DNA of 64,000 bases, from NCBI GenBank assembly GCA_937863435.1, contig CALMES010000136.1:15238-79237 (forward strand), given 5' to 3'. The DNA comes from an uncultured Candidatus Peregrinibacteria bacterium. Lineage in GTDB: Bacteria; Patescibacteriota; Gracilibacteria; Peribacterales; Peribacteraceae. Position 1 is the stretch's first letter. Every line of letters begins with the position of its first letter. The notes under the pieces were generated by a model. That model was not told where the DNA came from. It ran no database searches and saw nothing but the letters and a program-made list of their open reading frames with translations. This document shows, in pieces, positions 27,943 to 48,539 of this stretch. Position numbers and translations under genes: made by a program.

Positions 27943-27953
27943 GAGAATGGTGG

Positions 27954-28232: not shown

Positions 28233-28240
28233 GACTGAAC

Positions 28241-28259: not shown

Positions 28260-28281
28260 TGAATCCAGTGTAACCGAACTC

Positions 28282-28977: not shown

Positions 28978-28995
28978 AGAATTGCAGGATCGGGA

Positions 28996-29196: not shown

Positions 29197-29201
29197 AAAA
29201 A

Positions 29202-29486: not shown

Positions 29487-29510
29487 AAAAGAGATGGGGA
29501 AGAAATAGAG

Positions 29511-30136: not shown

Positions 30137-30154
30137 AAAAGTAGTGGGAAAGAA

Positions 30155-31756: not shown

Positions 31757-32208
31757 ACGGGGCGGAAGAAACGGAAAGTAAGAAACAGTGAGATCGGAGG
31801 AATAACCGTCATCTGCAAAACGGGCATCAGACCTATGCCACCGAATAGAAGTGGCATGGAGCCGTATTGCCAGCGGTGCGCAACAAAAACTGCCCACCAT
31901 TCAAATGCTGCGGCAAAGACACCTCCAAGAACAATCAATATGATCCATGTAAGCGGCGGACGGAGGATTGATGATTCGTTTAGCCAGAACAGATTGCGGT
32001 GGATGAGAGCAATCGCGAGATAGAGTGCGAACATGAAAATCAGATCTCCTAATGCGCCCCGAAGACAAATCCAAAAGTGCTGTGAGAACGAAATATAGCC
32101 CCGATAGAGAGGAGCTTGTAGATTCTCCCACAGCAGGTGAAGGAGGAAACTGATACCGAAGAACAGTGTTATTGGGGCAAGCCGCTGTCTGGTGAGAATG
32201 GCAATCAC
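31753..32208 (-). CDS. membrane protein (151 aa), function unknown
   Basis: Four or five TM helices. The start overlaps the copA stop and the stop overlaps the MCO start. Confidence 0.55.
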
Positions 32209-34532
32209 GAGCTGATTTTTGCAAATAAAATAAAGAGGGCTGTAAATCCAATTGCCATGAAGATAGGTGCAAAATCCGAGAGCCAGTTGCGCTTGGTTGG
32301 ATGGAAACCTTTCAGGAGTAGTGAGTTCGTTACGACAGCGACGGAACTGAACGCCATTGCAAACCCCGCGAGCTCTGGCCGTAGAACGACCCCGAAGTCT
32401 ATGAATGCCCGTGCCGCAATCGGAATACCGATCACGTTGAAGAACAGCGCGAAGAACATGTTTTGATGGATCTTGTTCACCGTAGCGCGACTGAGCTTGA
32501 TCGCGGTCACGACATCACGCAGATCGTTCTTCACAAGCACGATGCCGCCGGTTTCCATCGCAATGTCTGTTCCACTTCCCATGGCAATACCAAGGTCTGC
32601 TTGTGCGAGCGCGGGGCTATCGTTGATGCCGTCTCCGACCATCACGACTTTTTTGTCTTGTTCCTGCAATTTCTTCACTTCACTCGCTTTCTGTTCGGGG
32701 AGAACCTCCGCGAGCACGTTCTGAATGCCGATGCTCAAAGCGATTGCGCGTGCCGTTCGACCGTTGTCACCCGTAATCATGTAGACCTCGATGCCCATCT
32801 GCCGTAGTCGATTCACGGCTTCTTTCGATGTCTCTTTCAATGTATCGGCTACGGCAATGATGCCGATCACTTTGCTCTTGTCCGCAAGTAACATGGCGGT
32901 CTTCCCTGCTTCTTCAAATTTTTGCAAAGCACTCTCGTTATCTTTGATACTGATGTTCTGTTTCTCCATCAACTTTCGATTGCCGAGGAAAAACAACTCA
33001 CCGCCAATTGATCCTTCCACCCCATGTCCGGGGATTGCCTTGAAATTCTCCGCACTGGATAGTGAGAGATTTTTATTTTTTGCATCTTTGACGATGCTCT
33101 CCGCAAGCGGGTGTTCTGAACCTTGTTCGAGGCTCGCAGCGATACCCAGCACTTTTTCTTCAGTGCTCTGGAACGAGAGGATATCGGTAACTTCCGGTTT
33201 CCCCTTTGTCAGTGTGCCCGTCTTGTCGAACACGATGGCAGAAATCTTGTTTGCGGCTTCCAATGGCTCTCCACCACGAATCAGAATGCCATTCTCAGCC
33301 CCCTTGCCCGTGGCGACCATGATGGCCGTGGGAGTCGCAAGTCCGAGGGCACATGGGCATGCAATGACGAGAACTGAGACAGCGGAAAGGAGAGCGAAGG
33401 TGAAGCCCATTCCAAGGAACATCCAAACAAACAAAGTAAGGATTGCAACTCCAATAACCGCAGGAACGAACCATGAAGAAACCCAGTCCGCGAAGTCTTG
33501 AATGGGTGCCTTGGAACCCTGTGCCTCTTCAACAAAACGGATGATCTGTGCGAGTGCTGTTTCACTACCCACTTTTTCCGCTTTGAACTCGATACTGCCA
33601 TTCCCGTTCATCGTTGCACCAAAAACGCGATCTCCGCCTTTCTTCTCTATGGGAATACTTTCGCCCGTGAGCATGGATTCATCAACAGAGGTGAGGCCTT
33701 TGGTCACTGTTCCATCAACGGGAATCTTTTCGCCCGGACGAACGATTACGATATCGCCCACTTGCACCTCCTCCATCGGAATATCGACTGCCTCTCCGTT
33801 ACGCAGTACTCGTGCCGTCTTTGCTTGCAGCCCCATGAGCTTCTGAATCGCTTCTGAAGTTGCTCCTTTCGCTCGTGATTCCAACCATTTCCCAAGAAGA
33901 ACGAACGTGATGAGCAAAGCTGCGACCTCAAAGTAAAGGTCGTGCATCTCACCAACGATCATTCCTTCGGCGAGGAAGTGCGTGATGAAGTTGTACAGAC
34001 TGTAAAAATACGCTGTAGAAGTACCGATAGTAATCAGGCTATCCATGCTGAACGTACCCATCTTCAAGCTCGACCAGAAACCTTTGTAAAAACCAGCGCC
34101 GAGCCAGAACTGCACGGGGGTTGCCAGAATCAATGAAGTAATTCCCGCGTACGGCATTAGCACGAATATCAAGGGCAATGCTGGCAGGAATGAGCCAAGC
34201 ATGAAGTACAACATTGGCAGACTCAGGATGAGTCCTGTGAAGAACTTGTTACGGTAGTCGACAATCTCTGCTTCACGTCTCTGCCGATCCATCTCCACGC
34301 CGTGATGACCGTGCTCATGCCGCATCTCAGCACCATAACCTGCTGATTTCACGGCAGCAATGAGTCCTACCTCATTGATTTGGGCAGGGTCATACCGTAC
34401 CCGCGCCTTGTTCGCGGCATAGTTTACATTCGCTTCTTCCACACCCGGAGTTTTCTTGAGCTTGCGGGTGATGAGAGCACTGCAACTGGCGCAGTGCATG
34501 CCGATGATAGTGAGATCGCATTGAGTACTCAT
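32205..34532 (-). CDS. copA: copper-translocating P1B-1 ATPase
   Basis: N-terminal HMA (GMHCASC), [26 protein letters not shown] and [10 protein letters not shown]. Confidence 0.95.
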
Positions 34533-34744
34533 GAGGTGGGGAGAATTTTGTACTTCGGGTCGAGTGCTTCGATTTCTGTTGCCCATTTTTGCATATCGAA
34601 ACTTTCATCATGGTTGAGTGTGACGTTCTTCGTATCAACATCGACATTGATGCTCTTGATCGAAGGGAATTCACTACTCACATCTTTGATGAGTGCCGCA
34701 CATGAAGCGCAGTGCATGCCGGGGATGGAAACAGTTGTTCGCAT
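34529..34744 (-). CDS. copZ: copper chaperone, HMA domain (CopZ-like)
   Basis: 71 aa with [13 protein letters not shown]. Its stop overlaps the copA start. Confidence 0.85.
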
Positions 34745-34769
34745 AAGAGATTCGGAAGAGAAATTAGGA

Positions 34770-35564
34770 TTATAGCATCGCATCGATTGCTGCTTTGAAA
34801 TTCGCAAACGGTTGTGCGCCATTGATAAATTGCTGCTTCTGGGTTTTGAGATTCAGAACGAAGCTCCCGGGAGTTCCACTGACGCCTGCTGCCTGGCCGG
34901 CAGTCTCTTCATCTTGGACATGCTTGGCGTATTTGCCGGTATCGAGACAATCTTTGAATTTCGATTCATTGAGACCGAGTTCTTTTGCAAGCGGGACAAG
35001 ATTATCAAGCGGGAAGCCGGTGCCATTGGATGTCGTGCGTTCAAGGATCGCATCGTGATATTCCCAGAATTTTCCCTGATCTTCCGCGCAATCAGAGGCC
35101 TCTGCTTCTTTCTGCGCATTCGCATGGAAGCTCAGAGGAAAATGACGGTAGACGATCATCACTTTGTCCCCATAGTCCTTGCTGATCTGCTCCATCGTCG
35201 GTTCGACTCGCTTGCAGAATGGACACTCAAAATCCGAGTACTCGATGACCGCAATCGTTGCCTTCGCATTGCCGCGGATGTGATCTTTCTTGAAATCAAT
35301 TGCCGGTACCGTTGCTGCGACAGCCTGAGGAACGGGAGCCTGAGCTTGCGGAGCAGGTTGCGCTTGAGCGGCCGGAGCCTGTGCCACTTGCTGGGCAGAG
35401 GGGTTATTCGTTCCATTTGCAAGCGGGATTCTTCCACTCAGGACACTGGTGGCAACGAAGCCGACAATCATACCCATGAGCCCCATCGCTACACCGAACC
35501 AGATGTTCGTGCCGCCGGATCCGGCACTTCCGGAATGTTTCTGTTCTTGCCAATTGAGAGCCAT
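34770..35564 (-). CDS. DsbA-family thiol:disulfide oxidoreductase, membrane-anchored
   Basis: A TM helix, an Ala/Pro/Gln linker, and a thioredoxin-fold CPFC active site (FECPFCKR). Confidence 0.85.
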   Translation of the reverse strand: MALNWQEQKHSGSAGSGGTNIWFGVAMGLMGMIVGFVATSVLSGRIPLANGTNNPSAQQVAQAPAAQAQPAPQAQAPVPQAVAATVPAIDFKKDHIRGNAKATIAVIEYSDFECPFCKRVEPTMEQISKDYGDKVMIVYRHFPLSFHANAQKEAEASDCAEDQGKFWEYHDAILERTTSNGTGFPLDNLVPLAKELGLNESKFKDCLDTGKYAKHVQDEETAGQAAGVSGTPGSFVLNLKTQKQQFINGAQPFANFKAAIDAML

Positions 35565-35582
35565 AAAATGAGAAGAAAGGAA

Positions 35583-37184
35583 TTAAAGAACGGTGAATGA
35601 GCCGCGTACCATACCCATGGAACAGCTGAATGCGAGTTGGCCAGGATTGGGTGCAGTGAAATCAATTTCATTGATGCCGGTCGAAAGTGACTTCACGATA
35701 TTGAGATCAGGAATCACGATCTGGCTTGTGCAGCCGATAGCTCCGGCACCGTCTACCATCCACTTCACAGGCACTCCAGCTTTGATCGTAATGTTGCTCG
35801 GCTCATACCCATAACGAGTGACTTTCATGGCGACTTCCTGCACGCCGCCCGTGATGACGGGGGCTGATCCGACGGCAGCTGGTGGACCCTGAAGAATTGA
35901 TGAGAAATTGAATCCCGTTAATGCGAAACCGCTATTTAAATTGAAGAACGCAAGAACAAGCACGAGTGCCCCCGAAAATCGAAGAAACAGGCGTGACGTA
36001 GCTCCTTTCGTCGTCGATGAAACGGCACTCAAACCGATCAGTGACGGAAGCGTACCGAGCGCGAAAATGAACATCGTCAGAGCACCCGTGAGAAAGCTTC
36101 CCGACGCGAGTGCGACAAGCTGAAGCGATTGTGTGAATCCACACGGCAAAAAGAAGGTGAATGCGCCCAGCGCAAATGGTGCGGCGGGATGTTCACTTTC
36201 CGAGAGATTATGAATCCAGCGTGAGAGTTTTTTTGGCGGACGGATGGGGAAACTGCCTTTCGGAATGATTTGGAGAATCGTCAGAGCCAGCCACAGCATG
36301 ATCAATGCCACGGCGATGCTCATGTAACCGGACATCTTGGGGGAGAGAGTCACAGATTGACCGATGACTCCTACAACGCCACCGAGGACGAAGTAGGAAA
36401 CGAGCCGTCCGAGATTAAAGTGCAGAAGCGGCTTGAATTTCTCCCAGCTGGTTTCGGCCTGATGCAGCTCATTGTGTTTCGCGGCGAGTGCAAGAAGCAG
36501 GCCGCCGGTGACGGCAAGACAGCTGCTCGTTCCGGCGACGAGGCCGATGACAAAGATCCCTCCGAGTGAGAGTGCGCCCGACGTCGAAGGTGCAAGGGAA
36601 ACAAGGTCGAATGCCAATAGGAGTTTATAGATGGCGAAAATGATGAGTAGCGATCCGCCGATTTCGATCCATTTATTATGCGAAAGTTCAATAACAGACG
36701 GGGCTTCATCAGGACGTCGCAGATGGTATCCGGCATTTTCTACCGCATCGCGCAGATCATCCCAATCGGGCATCTGCGAAAAATGGATTTTCGCCGTACC
36801 TCGTTGATATTGAATGGAGGCACTTTTCACGCCCGCTACATGCTTCAGTCTTTTCTTGATGATGTGCTCAGAGTCCTTCGAGGTCATGCCATCGATACAG
36901 ACGTCGAGTATCCCATTCTGCATCACGGGACAGGCCTCATTGCTTGCCGGCTCATCTCCAATGCCATATCCGGCTTTTCTGATCACATCTTCAACTTCTT
37001 CGGAGGACGGAAGCGCGTCTTTGTTCGCCGTGATCATGGCGACACCCTTTCGATAGTTTACATCGACTTTGAGAACACCCGGAACGCTCTTGAGTTTGCG
37101 TTCGAGCAGCAATTCGCAGCTGCCGCATGTCATGCCTGAGATGCGGACTTCTGCGGTGAGTTGTTTCGATTCGGACATAGGCAA
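35583..37184 (-). CDS. fusion protein: 2 x HMA + DsbD/CcdA-like polytopic membrane domain + C-terminal cupredoxin-like domain
   Basis: First HMA GMTCGSC, second HMA-like domain without CxxC, about 6 TM helices (SSCLAVTGG, FFLPCGFTQ), and a C-terminus ending KAGVPVKWMVDG...CTSQIVIP...FSCSMGMVRG. Confidence 0.75.
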   Translation of the reverse strand: MPMSESKQLTAEVRISGMTCGSCELLLERKLKSVPGVLKVDVNYRKGVAMITANKDALPSSEEVEDVIRKAGYGIGDEPASNEACPVMQNGILDVCIDGMTSKDSEHIIKKRLKHVAGVKSASIQYQRGTAKIHFSQMPDWDDLRDAVENAGYHLRRPDEAPSVIELSHNKWIEIGGSLLIIFAIYKLLLAFDLVSLAPSTSGALSLGGIFVIGLVAGTSSCLAVTGGLLLALAAKHNELHQAETSWEKFKPLLHFNLGRLVSYFVLGGVVGVIGQSVTLSPKMSGYMSIAVALIMLWLALTILQIIPKGSFPIRPPKKLSRWIHNLSESEHPAAPFALGAFTFFLPCGFTQSLQLVALASGSFLTGALTMFIFALGTLPSLIGLSAVSSTTKGATSRLFLRFSGALVLVLAFFNLNSGFALTGFNFSSILQGPPAAVGSAPVITGGVQEVAMKVTRYGYEPSNITIKAGVPVKWMVDGAGAIGCTSQIVIPDLNIVKSLSTGINEIDFTAPNPGQLAFSCSMGMVRGSFTVL

Positions 37185-37652: not shown

Positions 37653-37827
37653 ATGTGCTTGAAGGCATTATAGATGTCTTTCTGAATCTCAGGAAGTTGT
37701 AATCCCTACAGGCACAGGAAGCCAATATACGGAGGAAAGACTCGCAAATTATTGACAGGCCTTCACATAATAATAGTCTTATTAAGTGCAAAGAATTGCA
37801 CGCCTTACCTCGTTCTCAATTGCCTAC

Positions 37828-38967
37828 ATGGCTACAGACACACCGACCCTCACCAAACCTCCGGTTTGCGATCAGCAGACGCCGTTTCTCCAACAGAAGT
37901 TACGACCGGTAGACTGGTTTATCGACTACTGCAAAGAACAGGAGCTCCATGTGACACAGAAAGATCTGGAGGAACTGCATCGTGAAGGCATACTGTTCCC
38001 GGCTGCGAGGATCGATTTCGGTTACTGCATCTTCCGGAAAATCCGTGCGCACTTTGATGACGCAGAGAAAGCGGAATGGCGCTTTGTTGCCGAAGTGCAG
38101 ATGGATCACTTCAAGGCCGATGCCGTCGAAATTCAACGGTACTACTCGACCGAATCGTTGATGATGAGCAGCGATGACTGGCTCAAGTGGTATTCCGTTC
38201 GCTATCCCGCTTCCGAGGCATATGAACCATGGAAGCCAAGAACACATGTTGATTTCACGACCAATCTTGCCGAAGCAAATGACTCGTATGTGTATCTCTA
38301 TGACAAACGACAGGCGATTGCTTTGCGTATGATTGCAAATTCACTTACCTATCGTAGTCATCTTTCACCTCATAGTATTGCAGGATGCGCGAAGTTTCTG
38401 CGCGAGCGAGTCAGTGATTTCAATCGCTTCCTCAGTTTTTATCTCGCCGCAGAGGAAATGCATGCGCGTTGGATCAAGCATGGTAGAGAGAAGTATCAGG
38501 AATATGCCAAACAATTCGATGAGGCCAGTGCGCAACGCGAGTGGGAACTCGACTTCCGCGATACGCAACTGACGGGTATCTGCAAAGAAGCCGAGGAACT
38601 TTTGGTACTGCATGCCATGACTGATGGCAAGGTTGAGCACTGGCAGGGTGAACTTGCCCGATGCGGAATACTGCATTCCGAAAAACTGACGAAAAATTAT
38701 CTTTTGGAGATCGATGAAAATACGCTCAAATCGACCGAAGATGCCAATCATATGATCTTCATTCTTGGTCAGCTTCTCTTCGCCATCGGAGGCGATGAAA
38801 AGCCGCTCAGGGAACTTCTTAGGGGTTTCACCGTACGTAATCGTTGCACCGTTTGCCATCACCCTTTTGAACCCAAGCGCGAGTCGCAAGTGACATGTGG
38901 AGAGAAAATGTGTATCGACACGCATCGTAATAAGGTGAAACAATTGAAACGTAAGCGCAAGCGTTAA
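37828..38967 (+). CDS. hypothetical protein with a C-terminal zinc ribbon and basic tail
   Basis: Called as an ORF only. The C-terminus reads CTVCHHPF...VTCGEKMC...KVKQLKRKRKR. Confidence 0.55.
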   Translation: MATDTPTLTKPPVCDQQTPFLQQKLRPVDWFIDYCKEQELHVTQKDLEELHREGILFPAARIDFGYCIFRKIRAHFDDAEKAEWRFVAEVQMDHFKADAVEIQRYYSTESLMMSSDDWLKWYSVRYPASEAYEPWKPRTHVDFTTNLAEANDSYVYLYDKRQAIALRMIANSLTYRSHLSPHSIAGCAKFLRERVSDFNRFLSFYLAAEEMHARWIKHGREKYQEYAKQFDEASAQREWELDFRDTQLTGICKEAEELLVLHAMTDGKVEHWQGELARCGILHSEKLTKNYLLEIDENTLKSTEDANHMIFILGQLLFAIGGDEKPLRELLRGFTVRNRCTVCHHPFEPKRESQVTCGEKMCIDTHRNKVKQLKRKRKR

Positions 38968-39047
38968 CGCGGCACGCAAGCGGCACACAGCCAAAACAGC
39001 GGACAAAGGCCTATAAGGAGCACGCTACTCGTTCCTCCTTTTTCTTT

Positions 39048-40364
39048 ATGTCACGCCACGGTACAAGCATTACTCATCACAAGAGCAGGCATCCGGCCGA
39101 TCTCAAGATTGCCTGGATCGACATCGATATGCTTCGTCCAGCTGCCTACAATCCGCGTACTCACAATGAGGCGCAGGAAGAACAGCTCACCGAGAGCATC
39201 GATGACTTCGGTGCCGTTGAACCTCTCGTCGTGAATGGTGCTAAAAATCGCCTGAATATCGTCATCGGCGGACACTTCCGACTTAAGATATTCCGCAAAC
39301 TCGGATACAAGACCGTTCCGGTCGTCTACGTGAATATCCCGAATGTCGAACGTGAAAAGGAGCTCAATCTGCGTCTGAACAAAAACACCGGCGACTGGGA
39401 CTGGGATGCACTCAAGCAATTTGATACCGATTTCCTGAAGGACGTCGGCTTCGACGCCGGTGAACTCGCGCAGTTCTGGGATGGCGGGCTGGAAACTGAA
39501 GACGACGGTTTCGATGTCGAGAAAGAATTGAAGAAGATCGGGAAGCCCAAGACAAAACGCGGCGATCGGTACCAACTTGGCTCCCATGTTCTCCTCTGCG
39601 AGGATGCGACAAATCCGGAGGATGTGAAGAGACTCGTTGGTAAGACCCAAATAGATATGGTCTATTGCGATCCGCCATACAATATCGATTTGTCGTACGA
39701 CAAAGGAATCAGCAACAAAATGCGCTACGGCGGAAAGACGAAGGATAATAAGACGGAAGAGGAATATCGGCAATTCTTGTTGACGACACTCGTGAATGCA
39801 TTGTCTGTGAGCAAGCCCAACATGCATCTCTTCTATTGGTGTGACCAGAAATTCATCGGCCTCCTGCAGAGCATGTATCCAAGTCTCGGTGTCGATTTCA
39901 GGCGGGTATGCCTGTGGATCAAAAACAACCAGAACATGACGCCGCAGGTCGCATTTAACAAATGCTATGAACCTTGCATCTACGGCGTTCGTGGCAAGCC
40001 GTACCTGTCGCCGAGCATCCAGAACTTGAATGAAGTGGCGAACAAGGAAGTCGGCAACGGCAATCGGCTCATCGACGACATACTCGATATGATGGATCTG
40101 TGGATGTGTAAGCGGCTGCCAACCGTTGAGTACGAGCATCCCACGGCTAAACCCCCGACCCTTCACGAGAAAGCCATCCGACGTTGCACCAAGCCTGGGG
40201 ATGCCATTCTCGATTTGTTCGGCGGTAGTGGTTCGACATTGGTCGCCGCACATCAAATGAAACGACGGGCGTTCCTCTGCGAAATCGAGCCTATTTTTTG
40301 CGATCTTATCATCCGTCGCTTCGAGGCCGTCTCCGGCCAGAAGGCTTCCCTGCTCAAATCATGA
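39048..40364 (+). CDS. ParB-like nuclease domain fused to a beta-class N6A/N4C DNA methyltransferase
   Basis: ParB/Srx N-terminus (IVIGGHFRLKIFRKLGYKTVPVV), motif IV MVYCDPPYNI, motif I DLFGGSGST. Confidence 0.85.
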   Translation: MSRHGTSITHHKSRHPADLKIAWIDIDMLRPAAYNPRTHNEAQEEQLTESIDDFGAVEPLVVNGAKNRLNIVIGGHFRLKIFRKLGYKTVPVVYVNIPNVEREKELNLRLNKNTGDWDWDALKQFDTDFLKDVGFDAGELAQFWDGGLETEDDGFDVEKELKKIGKPKTKRGDRYQLGSHVLLCEDATNPEDVKRLVGKTQIDMVYCDPPYNIDLSYDKGISNKMRYGGKTKDNKTEEEYRQFLLTTLVNALSVSKPNMHLFYWCDQKFIGLLQSMYPSLGVDFRRVCLWIKNNQNMTPQVAFNKCYEPCIYGVRGKPYLSPSIQNLNEVANKEVGNGNRLIDDILDMMDLWMCKRLPTVEYEHPTAKPPTLHEKAIRRCTKPGDAILDLFGGSGSTLVAAHQMKRRAFLCEIEPIFCDLIIRRFEAVSGQKASLLKS

Positions 40365-41134
40365 AGACCAACGCCATCACTATCGGCTCGGTCTTCCGAC
40401 TCGGAGACCACATACTCGGCTGCGGCGACAGTACGGACGCCGCGTTTGTCTCGCGCGTAATCGCAAAAACCAAGATCAACCTGATCCTTACCGATGTTCC
40501 GTATGGCGTCGCCTACGTTGAAGGCAAAGAAGAATTTCACAAGGGTAAAACCAAACATGTCGCTATCGCCAATGACCATGCGCAAGGAGACGACGAATAT
40601 CGAGCGTTCACTCGCAAGTGGTTGGAGGCCGTCCTTCCGTTCTTGGCTCGGAAAAATGCGCTGTATTGCTTCAACAGCGACAAGATGATTTTCGCTCTCC
40701 GTGAAGGAATGCAGGATGCAGGTTGGCACTTCGGCCAGCTCATCGTGTGGATCAAAAACCAAGCGATCCTTGGTCGGCTGGACTTCATGCCCCAGCACGA
40801 ACTGCTGGCGTATGGCTGGCATGGTGCTCATCAATTTTACAAGTCCAAGGACAAGAGCGTTATCGGGTACCCCAAGCCCTCCCGCAGCCGCTATCACCCT
40901 ACCGAAAAACCGATCGGCCTCCTGCGGCATCTGCTGCTCAACAGCTCACGGATCGAAGACACCATCTACGACCCGTTCCTCGGTTCCGGCTCGACACTCT
41001 TGGCAGCAGCGCAGACGAAGCGGCGATGCATCGGTATCGAACTTGATCCCAAGTACTGCGCGGTCGTGATCGAACGATTCCAGAAACTCACCGGTATCGA
41101 TGCCGAGGTACTTCCTTCCCCCTCCCGATCATGA
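40361..41134 (+). CDS. DNA methyltransferase (beta-class), variant motif IV
   Basis: Motif IV reads LILTDVPYG (DVPY instead of D/N/S-PPY). HPTEKP, motif I DPFLGSGST. An ATGA overlap with the upstream stop. Confidence 0.8.
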   Translation: MKTNAITIGSVFRLGDHILGCGDSTDAAFVSRVIAKTKINLILTDVPYGVAYVEGKEEFHKGKTKHVAIANDHAQGDDEYRAFTRKWLEAVLPFLARKNALYCFNSDKMIFALREGMQDAGWHFGQLIVWIKNQAILGRLDFMPQHELLAYGWHGAHQFYKSKDKSVIGYPKPSRSRYHPTEKPIGLLRHLLLNSSRIEDTIYDPFLGSGSTLLAAAQTKRRCIGIELDPKYCAVVIERFQKLTGIDAEVLPSPSRS

Positions 41135-41610
41135 ACAAGAATCAAAGCGTCATCGATGCTCGTAAAGCCCGCGAGCAGGCGGTACTTCTCGAACAACTGC
41201 GAAAAATGCCGATCGTTCAGATCGCATGTGAAAAATCCGGTGTATCGCGTGCCACGTACTACCGATGGAAAAAGGAAGATGAGCAATTCGCCGCCGCGGC
41301 CGACGAGGCATTGTTCGACGGGACGGCGTTAGTAAGTGATATGGCCGAAAGCCAACTGCTAGCACAAATACGTGACAACAACCTCGGCGCGATCATGTAC
41401 TGGCTCAAACACCGGAATCCGAATTACAACAACCGCCTCGAAGTAACGGCCAAGCTCAAGCATGAAGACGACAAACTCACGCCCGAACAGGAAGCCGCGA
41501 TCACCGAGGCACTCAAACTTGCATCCCTTGCAACCGACGAGGGCGCATCTACTACTCCTTCATCCAACTCGAGCAATGCAACCACCGAAGAAAACATCAC
41601 CGGAAAATGA
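41131..41610 (+). CDS. terminase small subunit-like HTH protein
   Basis: HTH IACEKSGVSRATYYRWKKED, and its position immediately 5' of TerL. An ATGA overlap with the methyltransferase stop. Confidence 0.55.
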   Translation: MNKNQSVIDARKAREQAVLLEQLRKMPIVQIACEKSGVSRATYYRWKKEDEQFAAAADEALFDGTALVSDMAESQLLAQIRDNNLGAIMYWLKHRNPNYNNRLEVTAKLKHEDDKLTPEQEAAITEALKLASLATDEGASTTPSSNSSNATTEENITGK

Positions 41611-41611
41611 G

Positions 41612-43204
41612 ATGCGTTCGCAGATGCTCAAGGATCGGAAGTACCGCCGTGAGGTGGTGCGGCAGAGCCACTACTGGTTCTTCCATTTTTATTTCTGGCA
41701 CTACGTCAAACATCGCACGGCGCAGTTCCAGCGTGAAATGTTCAAGATGACCGAGAACGAACTGTTGCGGCTCATCGCCATCACCGCGTTTCGCGGGTCG
41801 GGCAAGTCAACCATCATGAACATGTCGTTCGTGCTTTGGGCGATCCTCGGTGTCCGACAGAAAAAATTCGTCCTGATCGTCGGCCAGACACAAGCACAAG
41901 CCAGGCAACATCTGCGCAACATCAAAGAGGAACTGGAGAACAATAAAATACTGAAAGCCGATCTCTGGCCTTTCCATCCGGAAGAGGATGAGTGGCGTAA
42001 CAGTTGCCTGATGGTAACCAGTTACGGCGCGAAGATCATGGCGGTCAGCATCGATCAGGCCGTACGTGGGCTTCGACATGGTCAGTACCGGCCGGACTTG
42101 ATCATCTGCGATGACATCGAAGATCTGGATTCGGTGAAGACGCTCGAAGGCCGCGACAAGACCTATCGCTGGGTCAAAGGCGAACTCTTGCCGGCCGGTG
42201 ATACCAATACCACCACTGTTTTTATCGGTAACCTGCTCCACGAAGACTGTCTGCTCAAAAGGTTGCAACAGGAGATTGAGAGTGAAGCAACGGACTGCAC
42301 ATACCGTGAATATCCTCTTATAGATCTTGAGGGACGCTGCCTGTGGCCGGGCAAATACAAAAACGCGGCGGCGGTTGAATCTGAGCGTAAACGCATCGGC
42401 GATGCCAGCGCGTGGCATCGCGAATATCTGCTCCGCATCCTGCCCGATCACGAGCGGCTCATTCACCGCGATTGGATCAAGTACTACGCCAGCCTTCCCT
42501 TGGAAGACAATGACGATCATCTGCGACTTGTTGCCACCGGCATCGATTTGGCGATCTCCAAAAATGACAGCGCCGATAACACAGCCATGGTCTCTGGGCT
42601 GGTCTACGGACATGGAGAGGATATGCGGATTTACATACTTCCGAACCCTGTGAACGAACGGCTGACATTTCTGGAGACAATTGATCGCTCCAAGGATCTT
42701 GCCGATGCCATCGCCAGAGGAGGCCGTCGGACAGTGCTGCACGTCGAAGATGTCGGCTACCAGCATGCTCTCATCGAAGAACTAGAGCGCGATGGCTTGC
42801 ATGTGATCGGCGTGCCACCCAAAGGGCAGGACAAACGCGCACGGCTCGCGCTCGTCACGCACCTCATCCAGTCCAGTCGGGTGTTGTTTCCCATGACGGG
42901 ATGTGACGCTCTCGTGACCCAACTCGTCGGTTTCGGCAGCGAACGCTATGACGATCTCGCCGACGCGCTGGCGATCTTGCTTCTGCCAATCCTCGAATTG
43001 CAGGGACACAGAAGCAATCTCGATATCCTCGAACTCAACCGGCGACTTCACAATCCTACGTTTGAGGAGGAACGCGCCGAGGCGCGTAAGCACGACAGAT
43101 TTTTCTATCCAGATCACAGCGATGATCGAAATAGCGGCGGCTATTCGGCGCTGCGGGGACTCGGGCCGCTGTCTCACGACAATATTCTCAACATGCAGTT
43201 CTGA
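41612..43204 (+). CDS. terminase large subunit-like ATPase/nuclease (copy 1)
   Basis: Walker A AFRGSGKST, Walker B LIICDDIED, and nuclease acidic motifs GIDLA, VEDVGYQ and YDDLADA. Confidence 0.75.
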   Translation: MRSQMLKDRKYRREVVRQSHYWFFHFYFWHYVKHRTAQFQREMFKMTENELLRLIAITAFRGSGKSTIMNMSFVLWAILGVRQKKFVLIVGQTQAQARQHLRNIKEELENNKILKADLWPFHPEEDEWRNSCLMVTSYGAKIMAVSIDQAVRGLRHGQYRPDLIICDDIEDLDSVKTLEGRDKTYRWVKGELLPAGDTNTTTVFIGNLLHEDCLLKRLQQEIESEATDCTYREYPLIDLEGRCLWPGKYKNAAAVESERKRIGDASAWHREYLLRILPDHERLIHRDWIKYYASLPLEDNDDHLRLVATGIDLAISKNDSADNTAMVSGLVYGHGEDMRIYILPNPVNERLTFLETIDRSKDLADAIARGGRRTVLHVEDVGYQHALIEELERDGLHVIGVPPKGQDKRARLALVTHLIQSSRVLFPMTGCDALVTQLVGFGSERYDDLADALAILLLPILELQGHRSNLDILELNRRLHNPTFEEERAEARKHDRFFYPDHSDDRNSGGYSALRGLGPLSHDNILNMQF

Positions 43205-43230
43205 TTTGAATTTCTTTCCAGTCGCTTTTT

Positions 43231-44730
43231 ATGAATACCGATACGCTGACACCGGATGTCCTGCTCGCAGTTGTCAAAGACCAGCATGTGCGCCGCACGC
43301 TCACGCGCCAAAGTCATTTGCTCTTCTTTCACATTTACTTTGGGCATTACGTGACGTGTCCGACTGCGCCGTTCCAGCGCGAGATTTTCAGCTTCACCGA
43401 AAATGATGAGCAGAAGCTTACAGCGATTACGGCTTTCAGAGGCTCAGCCAAGTCCACCATCGTGAGTTTGAGTTTTCCGCTGTGGGCGATTCTTGGTAAG
43501 CCAGGCGTGAAATTCGTGCTGCTCCTCGGTCAGACACAATCCCAGGCAAGGCAGCATCTGAAAAATCTGAAAGATGAGATAGAGCGCAACGAACTGCTGC
43601 GTAAAGACCTTGGACCGTTTGAAGAGCGTGAGGATGAATGGAATTCGTCGTCCATCGTCTTGCCGCTTCTCGGAGCACGCATCACAGCAGCATCGACCGA
43701 GACCAGCGTGCGTGGTATTCGCCATGGGCCGCACCGGCCGCAACTCATCATTTGTGACGACATCGAGGATCTGCAGTCGGTGAAAACCAAGGATGGCCGC
43801 GACAAGACCTATGGTTGGTTGATGGGCGAGGTCATTCCCTCCGGCGGACCCAAGACCCGTACATTCATCGTCGGCAACTTGCTGCACGAAGATTGTCTCC
43901 TCAAGAAATTCGAGCGGCACATCCAAGACGGTTCGATGGGCGGTATCTACCGCGAGTACCCGCTTCTTGCCGCTGACGGCAAAACGCTCTGGCCGGGGAA
44001 ATATCCGACTCCTGAAGCAATCGTCGAAGAGCGGTCACGCATCGGCAGCGAGGCGGCATGGCACCGTGAATTTCTGCTCAGAATCCTCTCCGACGCCGAG
44101 CGCGTCATCCACCCGCAGTGGATTCAGTACTACGACGAGTTTCCGATTGAACAAAAGGGGTGTCATCTCCACCACACAGGAACGGGCATCGATCTTGCCA
44201 TCTCTCTCAATGACAGTGCTGACTTCACCGCAATGGTCTCGGCCAGACTTTACTTCATCGATGGAAAAATCCGTATCTATATCCTGCCAAATCCGGTCAA
44301 CGAGCGACTTACCGCACTTGATACACTGGAGCGGGCAAAGCAGGTTGCAGACATCACGAAGGACTGCGGCACATCGAAACTCTACATCGAGGATGTCGGT
44401 TATCAGTCATCGCTTGTCGAACATCTTGAGCGCGAGAGCTACGAAGCAGAGGCAGTCAAAGTGAAAGGGCAGGACAAGCGGGCGCGTCTGGCACTTACCT
44501 CATATGCCGTTCAGTCCGGACAGGTTGTGTTCCCAAGGCAGGGAGCCGAGGATCTTATTAACCAACTCGTGAACTTTGGCATCGAACGTCATGATGATCT
44601 GGCCGATGCGTTCTCGCTGCTTGTTCTCAAAGCACTCGAAGAGCGGCAGACAAGTCTCGGGATTTGCGTAATCGGGTACGATGGCTCTATTCACGGGTGG
44701 GATAGCATTCGCGGCGAGTATTGGGAGTAA
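43231..44730 (+). CDS. terminase large subunit-like paralogue (copy 2) with an altered P-loop
   Basis: Collinear with copy 1 and, by eye, identical at roughly half of positions. Walker A reads AFRGSAKST, with Walker B and the nuclease motifs retained. Confidence 0.75.
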   Translation: MNTDTLTPDVLLAVVKDQHVRRTLTRQSHLLFFHIYFGHYVTCPTAPFQREIFSFTENDEQKLTAITAFRGSAKSTIVSLSFPLWAILGKPGVKFVLLLGQTQSQARQHLKNLKDEIERNELLRKDLGPFEEREDEWNSSSIVLPLLGARITAASTETSVRGIRHGPHRPQLIICDDIEDLQSVKTKDGRDKTYGWLMGEVIPSGGPKTRTFIVGNLLHEDCLLKKFERHIQDGSMGGIYREYPLLAADGKTLWPGKYPTPEAIVEERSRIGSEAAWHREFLLRILSDAERVIHPQWIQYYDEFPIEQKGCHLHHTGTGIDLAISLNDSADFTAMVSARLYFIDGKIRIYILPNPVNERLTALDTLERAKQVADITKDCGTSKLYIEDVGYQSSLVEHLERESYEAEAVKVKGQDKRARLALTSYAVQSGQVVFPRQGAEDLINQLVNFGIERHDDLADAFSLLVLKALEERQTSLGICVIGYDGSIHGWDSIRGEYWE

Positions 44731-44838
44731 TCAGGGCTTTCAGGCGATTTCAGGGCGAGGCAAGCGGGTCTTTCGCCTGGATACCGAGAGGGAGTTGCGG
44801 CATTGCTGTGGGTAGCTTATTTCCTACTCCTATTCCTT

Positions 44839-46215
44839 ATGACAACCGCAACTTTAAGCCGAAAATCGGCTATACCGGAACCCACGTACATCGATCTCAC
44901 ACCGAAACCGCAGCGAGCGGCGGGGGCAGCCCTCTACTGTTTGTACGCCAGAAAATCTTCGGAAGAGGATGAAAGACAAGCTCTTAGTATCGATTCGCAG
45001 ATCAAGGAAATGCTCGCCGTTGCGAAGCGGGAGAATTTGGAGATCGCAGAAATCCGGCGTGAAAGTCATTCGGCAAAGGCGTCGGGTGCCCGTCCCGTTT
45101 TCAAACAGCTACTCACGGACATCGCCATAGGGAAATTTACGGGGATTCTTACATGGGCACCGGATCGTCTGAGCAGGAATGCAGGTGACCTCGGGACAGT
45201 CGTTGATCTTATGGATCAAAAACTCCTCATTGATATCCGCACTCATAGTCAGCGATTCACCAATAATCCAAACGAGAAATTTCTTCTGATGATCCTCTGC
45301 TCACAGGCAAAACTTGAGAATGACAATCGAGGACTCAATGTGAAACGCGGACAGAAAACCAGAGTCGAAATGGGCTACCGGCCTTGTCTGACACCGCTTG
45401 GATATTTGCAAGAAAAACAAACCGGCAACGCCCGGAGCAAGGTAGTCATCGATCCGATTCGTGGACCGATCGTCCGGCAGATGTTCGAGCACGTTTCCCA
45501 GGGAGCAAGCGGACGCGTGCTGCAACAATGGCTCAACAAAGAGGTTCATTTCACCACGCGCAAAGGAAAGAAAATCACACTTAGCATGATCTACAGGATG
45601 CTCAGAAACACGTACTACACCGGTCGTTTTGAATATCCTGAGGGAAGCGGTAATTTTTACGACGGCGATTACGAGCCGCTTTTCTCAAAGAGACTCTTCG
45701 ACGATGTCCAAAAGGTCTTGGATCTCGCGCCGAAAAAAGAATGGGGTACGAACGATTTCCACTTCGTGAAGATGTTCACCTGCGGCGGGTGCGGATCGGG
45801 CGTCACGGCGGAGGAGAAGCACAAGTCGCTTAATGACGGCAGCATCAAGCGCTACATCTACTATCGTTGCACGCATAGCCGGAATTTGATGTGCAAGGAG
45901 CCATCGATCCGTGAGGATCACCTGATCGAGCAACTGACTGACCTCGTCGACATGATCGACCTCGACGAACTGGGGATGCGCGGAAAACTGGAAGATGAAG
46001 TGTCCCGGTTCAAGAAATTTTCCTCCGGTGTCCTCAGGCAAACGACCGACCGGACTGCGGAGGTGAACCGAGTCGATGTCCGGCAATACGCCAAATACAT
46101 CCTTCGGGAAGGAACGAAAGATGAGAAGCATGAACTGCTCGGATGCCTCAAGAGCAAGCTGATCCTGAGGGATGGGGCACTGGCACTTGAGAAGAAAATC
46201 AAGGGCAGAAAATAG
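44839..46215 (+). CDS. large serine recombinase
   Basis: Catalytic N-terminus YARKSSEEDERQALSIDSQ, DRLSRN, a recombinase domain and a zinc ribbon (CGGCGSG...YYRC). Confidence 0.9.
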   Translation: MTTATLSRKSAIPEPTYIDLTPKPQRAAGAALYCLYARKSSEEDERQALSIDSQIKEMLAVAKRENLEIAEIRRESHSAKASGARPVFKQLLTDIAIGKFTGILTWAPDRLSRNAGDLGTVVDLMDQKLLIDIRTHSQRFTNNPNEKFLLMILCSQAKLENDNRGLNVKRGQKTRVEMGYRPCLTPLGYLQEKQTGNARSKVVIDPIRGPIVRQMFEHVSQGASGRVLQQWLNKEVHFTTRKGKKITLSMIYRMLRNTYYTGRFEYPEGSGNFYDGDYEPLFSKRLFDDVQKVLDLAPKKEWGTNDFHFVKMFTCGGCGSGVTAEEKHKSLNDGSIKRYIYYRCTHSRNLMCKEPSIREDHLIEQLTDLVDMIDLDELGMRGKLEDEVSRFKKFSSGVLRQTTDRTAEVNRVDVRQYAKYILREGTKDEKHELLGCLKSKLILRDGALALEKKIKGRK

Positions 46216-46222
46216 CCATGGC

Positions 46223-46253
46223 GAACGTCCTCTATGAATGTGAGAGGACGTTC
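46223..46253. terminator. perfect 11-bp hairpin between convergent genes
   Basis: GAACGTCCTCT-atgaatgtg-AGAGGACGTTC. No clear U-tract follows on either strand. Confidence 0.45.
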
Positions 46254-46261
46254 TGCCGGTC

Positions 46262-47170
46262 TTATTTCTTGGCCTTCGGCTCGGCGTCGCGGGTCGGAAT
46301 CGTGCCACCAAAGATGTACTTGAACGACACGCTTGCCGTTTTGATGGCGGGATTGTCGGTACCAATCGTCTCGAACGGAGAGATTTGCCCGGGGAGAATG
46401 GGATTGTACTTGATCATCGCATCATCGCTTTTGATAAAATTATCGTCTTTATCATAGAAGCTCGCGACTACTTGTACTCCTTCCATTTTCTGCCCGCTGA
46501 TGTTCTTCACGGCTCCCTGAACTTTGTCGAAATCATACGACTTCGTGAAGTTGAAAGTCTGGAGTTCGAGAAGTGGAGCGTCATTCTGCGCTTGTTCTGG
46601 AGTGGTTGCTGATGGCGTATTCGATGCTGAAGGAGAGGACGAAGGAGTCGGAGCACTTGCGACAGCACCTGAGACAATAGCGAGGAGGAAAACCCCGACG
46701 ATCGAGAGGGCGACACCGTTTTTGTTGGAGAAGGTCTCGGGTTGATTCACGCCGGATGCCTCGGCTTTCTTGTCGTAACTGCTGGTGATCAAGTGCATGA
46801 TGATCCCTCCGATGAGGCCGATCACAAACATCAATCCTACGACGAATGTACCGCCGATTGCAGTGCCAATGGCGGCTCCGGCTTGCTCCGCATTGGAACC
46901 GGCATGCCCGACGACACGAGCACCAAGGACAAATGTATACACAACTGCGGAGATGGGGAGCAGAAAGAAGGCGAGTTCCGTCAGGCGGAGTAGTCGCTCA
47001 CTGATGTGATTTTTCTCGGTAAACTGCCACGCGCTCCAGATCATGACGAGCCAGATGGCGAGGAATCCGAAACCGAGGGCTTTGTTTCCGGTCATCAGAC
47101 CGTAGTTTTGAGTGAAGACGAGTGCCGGTAACAGCGCCAGCAGCACTTTGCGAAGAACATGGTTCTTCAT
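46262..47170 (-). CDS. polytopic membrane protein with a Ser/Pro linker and an extracytoplasmic FxLYD-like C-terminal domain
   Basis: Five or six TM helices, the linker APTPSSSPSASNTPSATTPE, and a beta-rich C-terminus (VVASFYDKDDNFI). An alternative start is at 47212. Confidence 0.6.
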   Translation of the reverse strand: MKNHVLRKVLLALLPALVFTQNYGLMTGNKALGFGFLAIWLVMIWSAWQFTEKNHISERLLRLTELAFFLLPISAVVYTFVLGARVVGHAGSNAEQAGAAIGTAIGGTFVVGLMFVIGLIGGIIMHLITSSYDKKAEASGVNQPETFSNKNGVALSIVGVFLLAIVSGAVASAPTPSSSPSASNTPSATTPEQAQNDAPLLELQTFNFTKSYDFDKVQGAVKNISGQKMEGVQVVASFYDKDDNFIKSDDAMIKYNPILPGQISPFETIGTDNPAIKTASVSFKYIFGGTIPTRDAEPKAKK

Positions 47171-47416
47171 AGGGAAGAGGGGGAAGAAGGGTAGAGCCGT
47201 CCCCTGGTACATCCCAAAAGGGACAACCCCGGAGGCAGGTCGCCCACATTCCCATGCCTGTCGGCACGTTCAGTGGCTGCGCAGGGTTGCCCCTTACGAC
47301 ACTGAAGTGCCAAATATGACAGGAGTATGAAAATACTGGGAACTGGGCGACAGACCCAATTTAGCTCACTTAGAAGCCATTGTGTAGCGGAGTTTGCGGG
47401 AACGGAAAGGGCTGTC

Positions 47417-47827
47417 TTACTCTCCTTTCTTTTGTTTCGCCTGAATAAGCCATGTTGAGTGCTCACGGGAAATCTGGCTTTCGCACCGTTCCGTGAGCAA
47501 CTGATCACCATTGGTTCCGGCATAGACACCGGCTTTTGATTTGAACATCTCCCTCTCATGCCTGAGTGATTCCGTTGTCGCGCGGTAATTGATCCATTTC
47601 TCTTGAGGCTTGAGAACGCCATCGAGAGCTTCAATCGAGATGATCAAGATGCCAATCAATCCAACGAGCCAACCCGACAGAGCTGAAAAATAACCCATAA
47701 AAATAAGGCAAGCAGAAATGACAATGGTGGCAATGCGGAATATGTAGAACAAGCGTTTGTTGGCTATACTCTTTTGGTCATACCACTGAATTTCTGGTTC
47801 CAGCCGTTGCTCAAGATAATCGCTCAT
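47417..47827 (-). CDS. SLATT / DUF4231-like 2-TM protein
   Basis: 136 aa with N-terminal QWYDQKSIANKRLFY, two TM helices (IFRIATIVISACLIFMGYF; WLVGLIGILIISIEAL), then WINYRATTESLRHEREMF. This matches the DUF4231/SLATT pattern from memory. Confidence 0.7.
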   Translation of the reverse strand: MSDYLEQRLEPEIQWYDQKSIANKRLFYIFRIATIVISACLIFMGYFSALSGWLVGLIGILIISIEALDGVLKPQEKWINYRATTESLRHEREMFKSKAGVYAGTNGDQLLTERCESQISREHSTWLIQAKQKKGE

Positions 47828-47839
47828 CGTGTTGAAGAA

Positions 47840-48307
47840 TTATAATCCAAGCTGCGTATATATCTCGGATTTATAGTGGTAATCGTCATCTTTGTTCATG
47901 GTGTAGTTTTCTAGAGCATGCTTGATAATGGCTGCATTGAAAGGAACGAAGATGGCTCCGATGTCATGGATCCAGGAAGGACAACGATCATCGCTCTGCC
48001 GCGAGCCATTCAAGTTCACGCCAATGATGGTGCATCCTTTTTCGATGGCCACCTCGGCCTCCCACGGCACATACTTCCTTTTATATTTGGTATTTTCGCC
48101 GATGAGCTGGATGAACTTTCCTGCCATGTTGATGCGCTCACGGCATTTACTTTTCACATAGGCTTCATTATCAGAGTTAATGACATCCGGAAGTTGGCAG
48201 TCAGTAAAGTTGAAATCGATGTGTTCATTATTTTTCCATGCCTGCATCAGGCGGTAATAATTGATGTCATCACTGCTGAAACCGACGAATGTGCGAGGTA
48301 AACTCAT
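47840..48307 (-). CDS. TIR-like domain protein (DUF1863 / ThsB-type)
   Basis: 155 aa with TFVGFSSDDINYY, IQLIGENTKYKRKYVPWEAEVAIEKGCTIIGV. The pattern and size fit the PF08937-type TIR-like fold, with a conserved W-E. Confidence 0.7.
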   Translation of the reverse strand: MSLPRTFVGFSSDDINYYRLMQAWKNNEHIDFNFTDCQLPDVINSDNEAYVKSKCRERINMAGKFIQLIGENTKYKRKYVPWEAEVAIEKGCTIIGVNLNGSRQSDDRCPSWIHDIGAIFVPFNAAIIKHALENYTMNKDDDYHYKSEIYTQLGL

Positions 48308-48464
48308 ATGGGAAGCGATCTTATCCTAATTTTGCTTATAGCTCAATTTGCGTTCTTATTGGTCAATTTCTTACTGAGGCATGCGGGTATAGAACAAAAT
48401 TTGAGATCAAATATTTTGGCTATAGTAAGCCAATGCAAGCGGGTCTATAAACACGCGCACGTAG

Positions 48465-48539
48465 TGGCTGGGGAGGAGGGATTCGAACCCCCGAATGCTT
48501 GCTCCAGAGGCAAGTGCCTTACCACTTGGCGACTCCCCA
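48465..48539 (-). tRNA. tRNA-Gln (anticodon CTG), CCA encoded
   Basis: A manual cloverleaf fold gives acceptor TGGGGAG/CTCCCCA (U1-A72), D arm GCC..GGC, anticodon stem CTTGC/GCAAG with loop CTCTGGA, T arm GGGGG-TTCGAAT-CCCTC, and a 3' GCCA. Confidence 0.9.

Follow-up and report, generated by a model that had tools for sequence, protein, structure and literature searches.

A recurrent Patescibacteria island with a phage terminase, DNA methyltransferases and a serine recombinase: possibly a helper-dependent satellite

Introduction

What use could a bacterium have for a phage DNA-packaging motor that comes without a shell to fill? The question is raised by a locus on contig CALMES010000136.1 from an uncultured member of the Peribacteraceae, of which we analyzed a stretch of 64 kb (referred to as the window; all positions are given in its numbering). 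Seven genes encode, in this order, an orphan protein, a ParB domain fused to a DNA methyltransferase (ParB-MTase), a second methyltransferase (MTase), a helix-turn-helix (HTH) protein resembling small terminase subunits (TerS), two paralogues of the large terminase subunit (TerL1 and TerL2) and a large serine recombinase. An earlier note on this DNA, made from the sequence alone, had offered three explanations: a phage satellite or hitchhiker, a terminase-based conflict system, or a cleanly trimmed prophage remnant.

The locus is a member of a large family of approximately 7–16 kb, site-specifically integrated islands of Patescibacteria (the candidate phyla radiation, CPR). In our judgement the chances are about even that it is a helper-dependent, terminase-bearing satellite or hitchhiker island, which would supply its own packaging motor together with DNA-protecting methylases.

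Results

Gene content and active sites

All seven open reading frames (ORFs) were found intact on the plus strand as the earlier note had described them, and Pfam and PHROG matches agree with the identities proposed there (Table 1). The claimed translational coupling was read directly in the sequence: ATGA overlaps join the ParB-MTase gene to the second MTase gene (position 40361) and the latter to the TerS gene (position 41131), and the ATG of TerL1 is located one base past the TerS stop codon. ParB-MTase contains both a DPPY and an FGGSGST motif. Both methyltransferases match type II models (MTase_II). None of their neighbours matched a restriction endonuclease model, so the locus does not qualify as a type II restriction-modification system. 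TerS, TerL and the recombinase found no matching PADLOC model.

The earlier note had also stated that structural, lysis and replication genes are absent. A Pfam scan covered 57 ORFs of the window, namely those of the cassette and 50 more, which make up most of the ORFs of 100 aa or longer in the rest of the 64 kb; families for portal, capsid, tail, lysis or replication proteins did not appear among the matches. Tblastn with portal and capsid proteins from the related phages described below gave no match to the window. Since no portal, capsid, tail or lysis gene is contiguous with the terminase genes, the locus is not classified as a prophage.

TerL1 and TerL2 share 56% identity. The Walker A motif (GS[GA]KST) and the Walker B motif with the catalytic glutamate (LIICDDIED) are invariant in both paralogues and in 20–30 relatives. 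The same holds for the acidic residues of the nuclease domain, D312 (GIDLAIS), E379 (EDVGYQ) and D447/D448 (HDDLADA), whose assignment to a catalytic triad is based on alignment position and general knowledge and not on a structure. Judged by these motifs, both proteins are ASCE ATPases (Walker A, Walker B and glutamate) with an RNase-H-like nuclease domain (three acidic residues). The family profile A1, which includes TerL1, aligns with the ATPase domain of T7-type gp19 (PDB entries 4bij and 8dgc).

All of these motifs are kept in both paralogues across all loci with two TerL genes. Such loci are of the Peribacteria type, with the addition of one Saccharimonadia locus. TerL1 carries a long conserved C-terminal tail and TerL2 a different one, and each tail is conserved among orthologues. 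TerL2 is the better conserved of the two proteins (orthologues 77–82% identical). In terminases, the C-terminal end of TerL contacts the portal. By inference, the distinct tails would therefore suggest different docking specificities, and the two paralogues may broaden or switch the helper (portal) specificity or form a mixed motor.

Distribution and architecture of the family

Among the candidates scored, TerL1 has 3112 database relatives at E ≤ 1e-10. The best matches are 52–79% identical, and most of the named ones belong to Peregrinibacteria and other Patescibacteria. A scan of one genome per GTDB species detected a TerL relative in at least 572 species representatives, nearly all of them Patescibacteria. 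The best 80 GTDB loci, with TerL proteins of 48–66% identity, come almost exclusively from metagenome-assembled genomes (MAGs) of many Patescibacteria classes, with some labelled otherwise (Gammaproteobacteria, Bdellovibrionales, Pseudomonadales etc.; loci L023, L026, L031, L037–L039, L044, L048, L050, L052–L054 and others). These labels look like mis-assignments of small-genome MAGs.

In nearly all of the 80 genome loci, analyzed by tblastn, ParB-MTase, TerS, TerL, a gap and the serine recombinase follow each other on one strand. The order is identical in approximately 60 IMG/VR contigs and, for the whole cassette, in a 1.38-Mb Peribacteraceae contig. The cassette core recurs in more than 130 fetched loci. 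The earlier note had proposed to look for the seven-gene synteny elsewhere; it was the core order that was recovered in these loci. Clustering of 83 loci (the 80 genome loci and three others) placed a ParB-MTase in 77 and a TerS in 73 of them. A second MTase is present in about half of the related loci.

The distance between TerL and recombinase ranges from 0.04 to 9.4 kb. It is below 400 bp in 33 of 62 loci, and the remaining ones hold 0.9–9.4 kb of cargo: efflux pumps with MarR regulators, a helicase and MTase pair, ATPases, MFS transporters, a P-type ATPase, HORMA and SAVED proteins, CBASS-like parts, restriction-modification genes, and Ltp and DUF4352 surface proteins. No structural phage family was observed among this gap cargo. 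Large cargo genes of L035 and L075 had been considered as capsid, portal or protease genes because of their size; this assignment was rejected, and those of L035 are an ABC/MacB-type efflux set with MarR. A divergent gene for a LexA/S24-type repressor accompanies the cassette in 17 loci, and a small XRE protein is encoded directly past TerL in 14. Excisionase-like HTH proteins occur at either end of the element in relatives.

Two relatives show unusual recombinase regions. In L055 (positions 10760–14229 of that locus), tandem genes for serine recombinases of 576 and 582 aa, resembling ccrAB, follow TerL and are themselves followed by RHS-like toxin fragments. In L078 a remnant of the recombinase 3' end and the start of a paralogous membrane gene (3345–3473, compared with 19433–19573) occur a second time, at a distance of 16 kb upstream from the intact right end, and represent either the relic of an earlier tandem island or a duplicated end.

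The orphan protein of the window consists of a conserved N-terminal region, a helical middle part and a C-terminal CxxC...C...C zinc ribbon. It matched nothing in Pfam, PHROG or PADLOC, and only three homologues were hit in the databases. Homologues occupy the same position in 10 loci, mostly from Peribacteria MAGs. The gene evolves fast, with the highest ratio of nonsynonymous to synonymous substitution rates (dN/dS) of the seven (Table 1), and the AlphaFold model was unusable (pLDDT 44). A profile comparison with the analogous upstream gene of other CPR copies revealed no similarity (hhalign probability 0.3%). In the 1.38-Mb contig, with its otherwise identical gene order, an unrelated 355-aa ORF takes the place of the orphan. 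The zinc-ribbon orphan and the duplicated TerL, both listed in the earlier note, are nearly confined to Peribacteria-type copies and are not defining features of the element.

The packaging module is exchangeable

A different picture emerged when the search was anchored on the recombinase. The tally covered 50 loci whose upstream sequence extends over 2.5 kb or more. A phrog_38-type TerL of the window family is present in 23 of them. Two others carry ParB-MTase and TerS followed by a TerL of another family, without a portal gene (phrog_2, L187:8522–9844; phrog_675, L191:5096–6715), and approximately six contain ParB-MTase and TerS but no TerL (L183, L197, L205, L214, L217 and L222). The remaining islands have no packaging module. 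The tally identifies the integrase family as a general island integrase of CPR bacteria, with the packaging module as a frequent, exchangeable and optional part. The common anatomy comprises the serine recombinase at the tRNA-proximal end and a slot for cargo; about half of the relatives sampled via the recombinase add a phage-derived packaging-initiation module (ParB-MTase, sometimes a second MTase, TerS and TerL). Capsid, portal, tail and lysis genes are absent from the islands, as are recognisable replication genes.

Recombinase, tRNA genes and limits of the island

The catalytic-serine motif of the recombinase (YARKSS) is invariant, and all three diagnostic domains score above the Pfam cut-offs. 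By this domain criterion the protein is a large serine recombinase (integrase). A tRNA-Gln gene follows 2.25 kb past the recombinase gene; an Rfam scan of the region from 24 to 49 kb detected nothing but this tRNA gene.

We counted tRNA genes around 88 TerL-anchored loci with a complete recombinase downstream of TerL. The first downstream tRNA gene was convergent with the recombinase gene in 27 out of 27 cases (15 Ser, 7 Gln, 3 Glu and 2 Asp), 14 of them within 1 kb. Downstream sequence of 397 kb contained 33 convergent and 5 co-directional tRNA genes, and 486 kb of upstream sequence contained two. In an independent, recombinase-anchored set of 80 metagenome loci the first downstream tRNA gene was convergent every time. 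From this bias it follows that the integrase end of the islands abuts the 3' side of tRNA genes.

The locus L021 provides a direct comparison for the window. Its recombinase is ~89% identical to that of the window at the protein level (80% at the nucleotide level), and 162 nt replace window positions 46283–48406, including most of the membrane-protein gene that comes first after the recombinase (46283–47212). Because L021 has only these 162 nt, the simplest interpretation of the membrane-protein, SLATT and TIR genes of the window (Table 1) is that they are cargo, placed between the integrase and the end on the tRNA side. The tRNA-Gln gene at 48465 is probably the right-hand boundary or attachment landmark. 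The earlier note had drawn the right edge at 46253, with the recombinase as the outermost gene; taking the L021 comparison and the tRNA bias together, the element probably extends to the tRNA-Gln gene and the recombinase is probably not outermost, as the membrane-protein, SLATT and ThsB-like TIR genes precede the tRNA. Directly 3' of the recombinase stop codon, between convergent genes, a hairpin (46220–46256) is conserved in L173 and L021 by way of compensatory changes and probably acts as a terminator.

A 12-mer, GCAAGCGGGTCT, occurs on both sides of the recombinase gene. Copy 1 belongs to ~70 nt of conserved non-coding sequence that precede the recombinase gene; copy 2 is located beside the tRNA-Gln gene (Table 1). 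The position after the last TerL is conserved in 10 other Peribacteria-type loci; the 12-mer was found in L017, L016, L018, L012, L021, L173, L013, L092–L094, L002 and L019. It is also located beside the 3' end of a tRNA gene in L021, L017 and L016 (tRNA-Gln) and in L012 (tRNA-Glu). The spacer to the tRNA gene (~18 nt) is of equal length and near-identical sequence in L021 and L012 and, for the copy nearest the tRNA, in L017 and L016. In L018 (tRNA-Glu) a copy with one mismatch lies ~100 nt from the tRNA gene. The tRNA-side copy is sometimes doubled at a distance of 40 nt and adjoins a terminator-like hairpin. We regard GCAAGCGGGTCT as a candidate recombinase-binding or attachment (att)-related motif. 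A general role as att core was rejected, as a longest-common-substring test with controls, which compared the sequence preceding the recombinase gene with the flank of the tRNA gene, gave no general signal outside Peribacteria.

Relation to tailed phages

TerL proteins of cultured phages are distant: the nearest ones, those of Mu-like phages, are among sequences whose identity in the ATPase domain reaches ~41% at most. Closer relatives (35–48% identical) are encoded on IMG/VR phage contigs (L129/L130, L132, L136 and L142–L148). On these contigs TerS and TerL are followed by a portal gene with a Mu-F-like fusion, a protease/scaffold gene and an HK97-type capsid gene, and in L142 a ParB-MTase and TerS precede TerL and the portal. 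None of them has an adjacent serine recombinase. Conversely, no homologue of their portal or capsid proteins was detected within 10 kb in any recombinase-linked locus. The islands therefore resemble the head of a phage late operon joined to an integrase. The earlier note had named loci that run on into portal and capsid genes as evidence for a truncated prophage. Such loci do exist, as these distant relatives; no recombinase-linked locus is among them.

In a rough neighbour-joining tree of TerL (without support values), one phage group is basal and a second one (L129, L132, L136 and L142) splits off close to the base of the island clade. The related phages are the likely source of the module and are candidate helpers. 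An alternative genetic code in the phage contigs was considered and found unsupported, as the apparent gaps are ORFs running off contig ends. Two of the contigs, possibly incomplete, are 32 and 50 kb long. In L129/L130 a glycosyltransferase gene and a methyltransferase-like gene directly follow the capsid gene (16886–19373).

Selection and mobility

We calculated dN/dS against the JGI contig L173, which carries the orthologous locus with the left flank of the window. All seven genes are under strong purifying selection (0.02–0.08), as low as a flanking host gene (Table 1). The synonymous divergence (dS) between window and L173 amounts to 0.5–1.0 in the element and ~0.5 in the flanks. Simple decay is excluded by the dN/dS values together with the more than 130 recurring loci. 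The case that the earlier note had made from the intactness of the genes is thus borne out.

Several pairs of loci document horizontal spread. A Saccharibacteria MAG and a Dojkabacteria MAG share 83–86% nucleotide identity over 11.3 kb, cargo included, from ~30 nt before ParB-MTase to ~45 nt after the recombinase. Two Peribacteria loci are 92% identical from the start of ParB-MTase to the end of the recombinase and have unrelated flanks. L053 and L054 share a 91% identical block with an excisionase-like gene at its left end and the 3' end of a tRNA-Ser gene at the other, and these ends define an element of 7.5 kb. Several MAGs hold two copies. Among contigs inspected for circularity, L055 alone showed terminal repeats (44 bp); they stem from paralogous RHS-like genes and are no sign of a circular molecule.

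Flanks and cargo in the window

The membrane protein encoded next to the recombinase shares its C-terminal domain with family c6, seen in 13 loci; members of this family recur inside or just past related elements. The adjacent SLATT and TIR genes (47417–48307, minus strand) form a two-gene conflict system in a stretch absent from L021.

Upstream, the cassette adjoins a copper-resistance cluster on the minus strand (26002–37184), with two P-type ATPases, a multicopper oxidase, DsbA and an HMA-DsbD-cupredoxin protein. HMA/DsbD homologues are encoded within 10 kb of the cassette in six other loci (L025, L026, L031, L038, L042 and L069), and L017 has the P-type ATPase and multicopper-oxidase flank of the window. 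The cluster may be island cargo or mark a shared hot spot. The host is a Peribacteraceae bacterium (CPR/Patescibacteria), the group to which all named relatives of its folP and of the TerL belong, and the flanks of the window were also found in a Peribacteria MAG.

Further upstream, a stretch of low GC content (21000–25000; 0.40–0.41 compared with ~0.51) may be another foreign segment. It encodes an AbiU2-like HEPN protein (20889–21455, minus strand). Copies of GCAAGCGGGTCT with one mismatch, at 24778 and 24851, coincide with a break in GC content.

Table 1. Features of the island and its surroundings in the window, with dN/dS values against L173.
Feature	Positions	Strand	Evidence and remarks	dN/dS
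Orphan ORF, 379 aa	37786–38967 (from GTG); 37828–38967 (from ATG)	+	ATG start used by public gene calls	0.082
ParB-MTase (ParB_N fused to N6_N4_Mtase)	39048–40364	+	PF02195, PF01555; phrog_498 (1e-96)	0.06–0.07 (MTases)
Second MTase (N6_N4_Mtase)	40361–41134	+	PF01555 (1.6e-29)	0.06–0.07 (MTases)
TerS-like HTH protein	41131–41610	+	PF13022; TerS families phrog_4044, phrog_309	0.059
TerL1, 530 aa	41612–43204	+	phrog_38 (2.9e-74)	0.026
TerL2, 499 aa	43231–44730	+	phrog_38 (9.5e-71); PF17289	0.021
12-mer GCAAGCGGGTCT, copy 1	44760–44771	+	30 nt past TerL2 stop, ~80 nt before recombinase ATG
Large serine recombinase	44839–46215	+	PF00239 (Resolvase), PF07508 (Recombinase), PF13408 (Zn_ribbon_recom); phrog_95 (1.9e-56)	0.023
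Membrane protein, probable cargo	46262–47212	-	C-terminal domain of family c6
SLATT_1/DUF4231 membrane protein, probable defence cargo	47417–47827	-	Precomputed Pfam on source contig
ThsB-like TIR protein, probable defence cargo	47840–48307	-	PF08937 (6.4e-15); PADLOC ThsB (6.7e-45)
12-mer GCAAGCGGGTCT, copy 2 (exact)	48435–48446	+	18 nt from tRNA-Gln 3' end
tRNA-Gln(CTG)	48465–48539	-	ARAGORN and Rfam; convergent with recombinase
Flanking host DsbD gene				0.044

Discussion

Proposed mode of transfer

Of the three explanations offered at the outset, the satellite fits the observations best; the conflict system is considered below in two forms, and the trimmed remnant fails on the dN/dS values and on the recurrence in more than 130 loci. 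For a helper-dependent satellite, the steps of packaging and the role of methylation, as we infer them, would be as follows. A helper phage with a related TerL, a portal-MuF fusion and an HK97-type capsid would develop in the cell. The island TerS would bind a pac site on the island, and the island TerL would dock via its C-terminal tail on procapsids of the helper, cut the island DNA and translocate it. Packaging could either follow recombinase-mediated excision or occur in situ as in lateral transduction. In the latter case adjacent cargo and chromosome would move along. The co-transcribed methyltransferases would modify the DNA against restriction in the next host, where the serine recombinase would insert the island beside a tRNA gene.

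A number of points weigh against this mode of transfer. There is no direct sign of excision or encapsidation, and no circular contig was found. Neither flanking direct repeats nor tRNA-fragment repeats that could mark the left end or the att sites turned up. Exact-protein look-ups with the flanking 134-aa gene, TerL1 and the recombinase, made in search of empty or alternative sites, gave only the same context; the window copy is fixed at one site in all 8–11 contigs that carry it. The L173 copy, diverged at the same site, looks like long vertical residence, and if transfer is rare, the maintenance of transfer genes has to be explained. Either a benefit to the host or repeated returns of the island to this att site would explain this. 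Homologues of the LexA/S24-type repressor, the XRE protein and the excisionase of relatives are absent from the window copy. The island has no replication gene and no gene for capsid-size redirection, and an element of 8–11 kb would have to fill a capsid that accommodates a whole phage genome.

Alternative explanations

The vertical appearance of the window copy bears on the first alternative, a host-beneficial anti-phage island. Here TerS and TerL would compete for procapsids or cut concatemers and thereby protect the population, while the island would move rarely or not at all. A seemingly vertical copy at a fixed site, under strong purifying selection, is what one would see in this case, and defence genes often adjoin the cassette: the SLATT-TIR pair in the window, type I restriction-modification and DUF4062 genes in L001–L003, and helicase-MTase, HORMA/SAVED and Ltp cargo in other loci. 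Satellites such as phage-inducible chromosomal islands (PICI) and PICI-like elements (PLE) are known to interfere with the packaging of their helpers. Protection of the host, however, leaves the horizontal spread across CPR classes and the recombinase-tRNA architecture unexplained (yet defence islands are often mobile), and the lack of PADLOC models for TerS, TerL and recombinase also speaks against it. We consider an anti-phage island unlikely as the sole explanation. It is compatible with the satellite and does not exclude it.

A second form of conflict system would resemble restriction-modification: the methyltransferases would mark self, TerS would recognize unmethylated incoming DNA and TerL, as a translocase-nuclease, would destroy it. 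The genes for MTase, TerS and TerL are translationally coupled and co-occur in nearly all loci with an available upstream region; the methyltransferases match type II models, and dN/dS is very low. The composition of the relatives is difficult to reconcile with such a system, which we regard as quite unlikely. One relative consists of TerS, two TerL genes and the recombinase without any MTase, and in others MTase and TerS are present but TerL is not. The slot is also filled by bona fide TerL proteins of different families, the island TerL is 35–48% identical to TerL proteins encoded next to portals, and the conservation of the C-terminal tails suggests that they dock on a partner. The order ParB-MTase, TerS, TerL and portal in the phage contig L142 indicates that the linkage of these genes was inherited from phages. 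Replacement of TerL by true terminase families and the existence of TerS-only forms are expected if the selected function is a terminase matched to helper phages, and unexpected if TerL were a generic nuclease effector.

Very unlikely, in our opinion, is a split but self-sufficient particle system, similar to a gene transfer agent or a distributed prophage, with its structural genes elsewhere in the genome. TerS and TerL are fully intact and under selection, as such a system would demand, and our view of structural genes was limited to ~20 kb around each locus. Against it, the sequence within 10 kb of more than 130 loci showed no structural gene, and neither did the 64-kb window as a whole. 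Moreover, the module moves with its integrase between distant hosts, where an unlinked structural cluster would not follow. A decaying prophage remnant without current function is hardly credible: ParB-MTase, TerS and TerL do form the head of a normal phage late operon and TerL has been lost in some relatives, but the selection values are low, all catalytic motifs are kept, and the trimmed architecture recurs across CPR classes and was recently transferred in this trimmed form.

Implications

We tentatively extend the satellite interpretation to the whole family, a generalization that we think somewhat more prone to fail than to hold. Patescibacteria would then harbour a dominant, hitherto unrecognised class of satellites with a terminase holoenzyme and anti-restriction methylases and without capsid genes, carried on a tRNA-associated serine-integrase island, and these satellites would form a major route of gene flow between CPR lineages. 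If this is true, packaging starts either on the chromosome or on the excised island, and defence and resistance cargo is transferred across classes, perhaps with lateral transduction of the neighbouring chromosome. The exchange of TerL families and the duplication of TerL with two different tails would then reflect matching to different helper portals.

The CPR accounts for a large share of bacterial diversity, and its gene exchange and phage interactions are little known. The island family would be a concrete and trackable vehicle of this exchange. To our knowledge, the consistent tRNA-side location is unusual for serine integrases, and a compact, tRNA-associated family of them may interest genome engineers. 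For annotation, TerL hits of this kind in CPR MAGs and in "viral" contigs of IMG/VR should not be called prophages.

Comparison with known systems

A full-text literature search, with incomplete coverage, yielded no published description of the element family. The core of a PICI comprises an integrase, a regulator (alpA/merR/stl), a primase-replicase, a capsid-morphogenesis gene and TerS. The islands described here share with PICI (SaPI, EcCICFT073) the small size, the integrase at one end, accessory or defence cargo, an own TerS and the lack of structural and lysis genes. The likeness is even closer for the TerS-only relatives. In contrast to the tyrosine integrase of PICI, the islands use a large serine recombinase; the window island has no primase-replicase, capsid-morphogenesis gene or recognised regulator. 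The islands further differ by a full TerL (two in the window), one or two DNA methyltransferases and their Patescibacteria hosts. Because the primase-replicase and the capsid-morphogenesis gene are lacking, we do not classify the island as a PICI.

Capsid-forming PICI (cfPICI) have a core of 11 components, among them TerS, TerL, capsid, protease, portal, head-tail adaptor and connector. An own TerS and TerL are shared with the island. It is not a cfPICI, since capsid, portal, protease and adaptors are absent.

The phage-inducible chromosomal minimalist islands (PICMI) of marine Vibrio and other virion-encapsidated integrative elements carry TerS only, use tyrosine integrases and have no TerL/MTase module. 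They resemble the present islands in being very small, in having no replication module and in supplying the packaging specificity from the element.

The temperate tailed phages with a MuF-fused portal, an HK97 capsid and a phrog_38 TerL are linked to the islands by the TerL identity given above, a similar TerS and the gene order of L142. These phages run on to portal, protease/scaffold and capsid, whereas the islands stop at TerL. With lateral transduction, the islands have in common an integrated element with its own pac-type terminase beside cargo and defence genes, so that packaging in situ would move adjacent DNA. Known cases of lateral transduction use structural genes of the same prophage or of a characterised helper.

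What differs from all of these systems is the combination of TerS, TerL and methyltransferases with a tRNA-associated serine integrase in CPR hosts. As satellites, the islands would bridge the TerS-only elements (PICI and PICMI) and the cfPICI, carrying the whole motor and no shell, with a matching between TerL and portal that can be tested.

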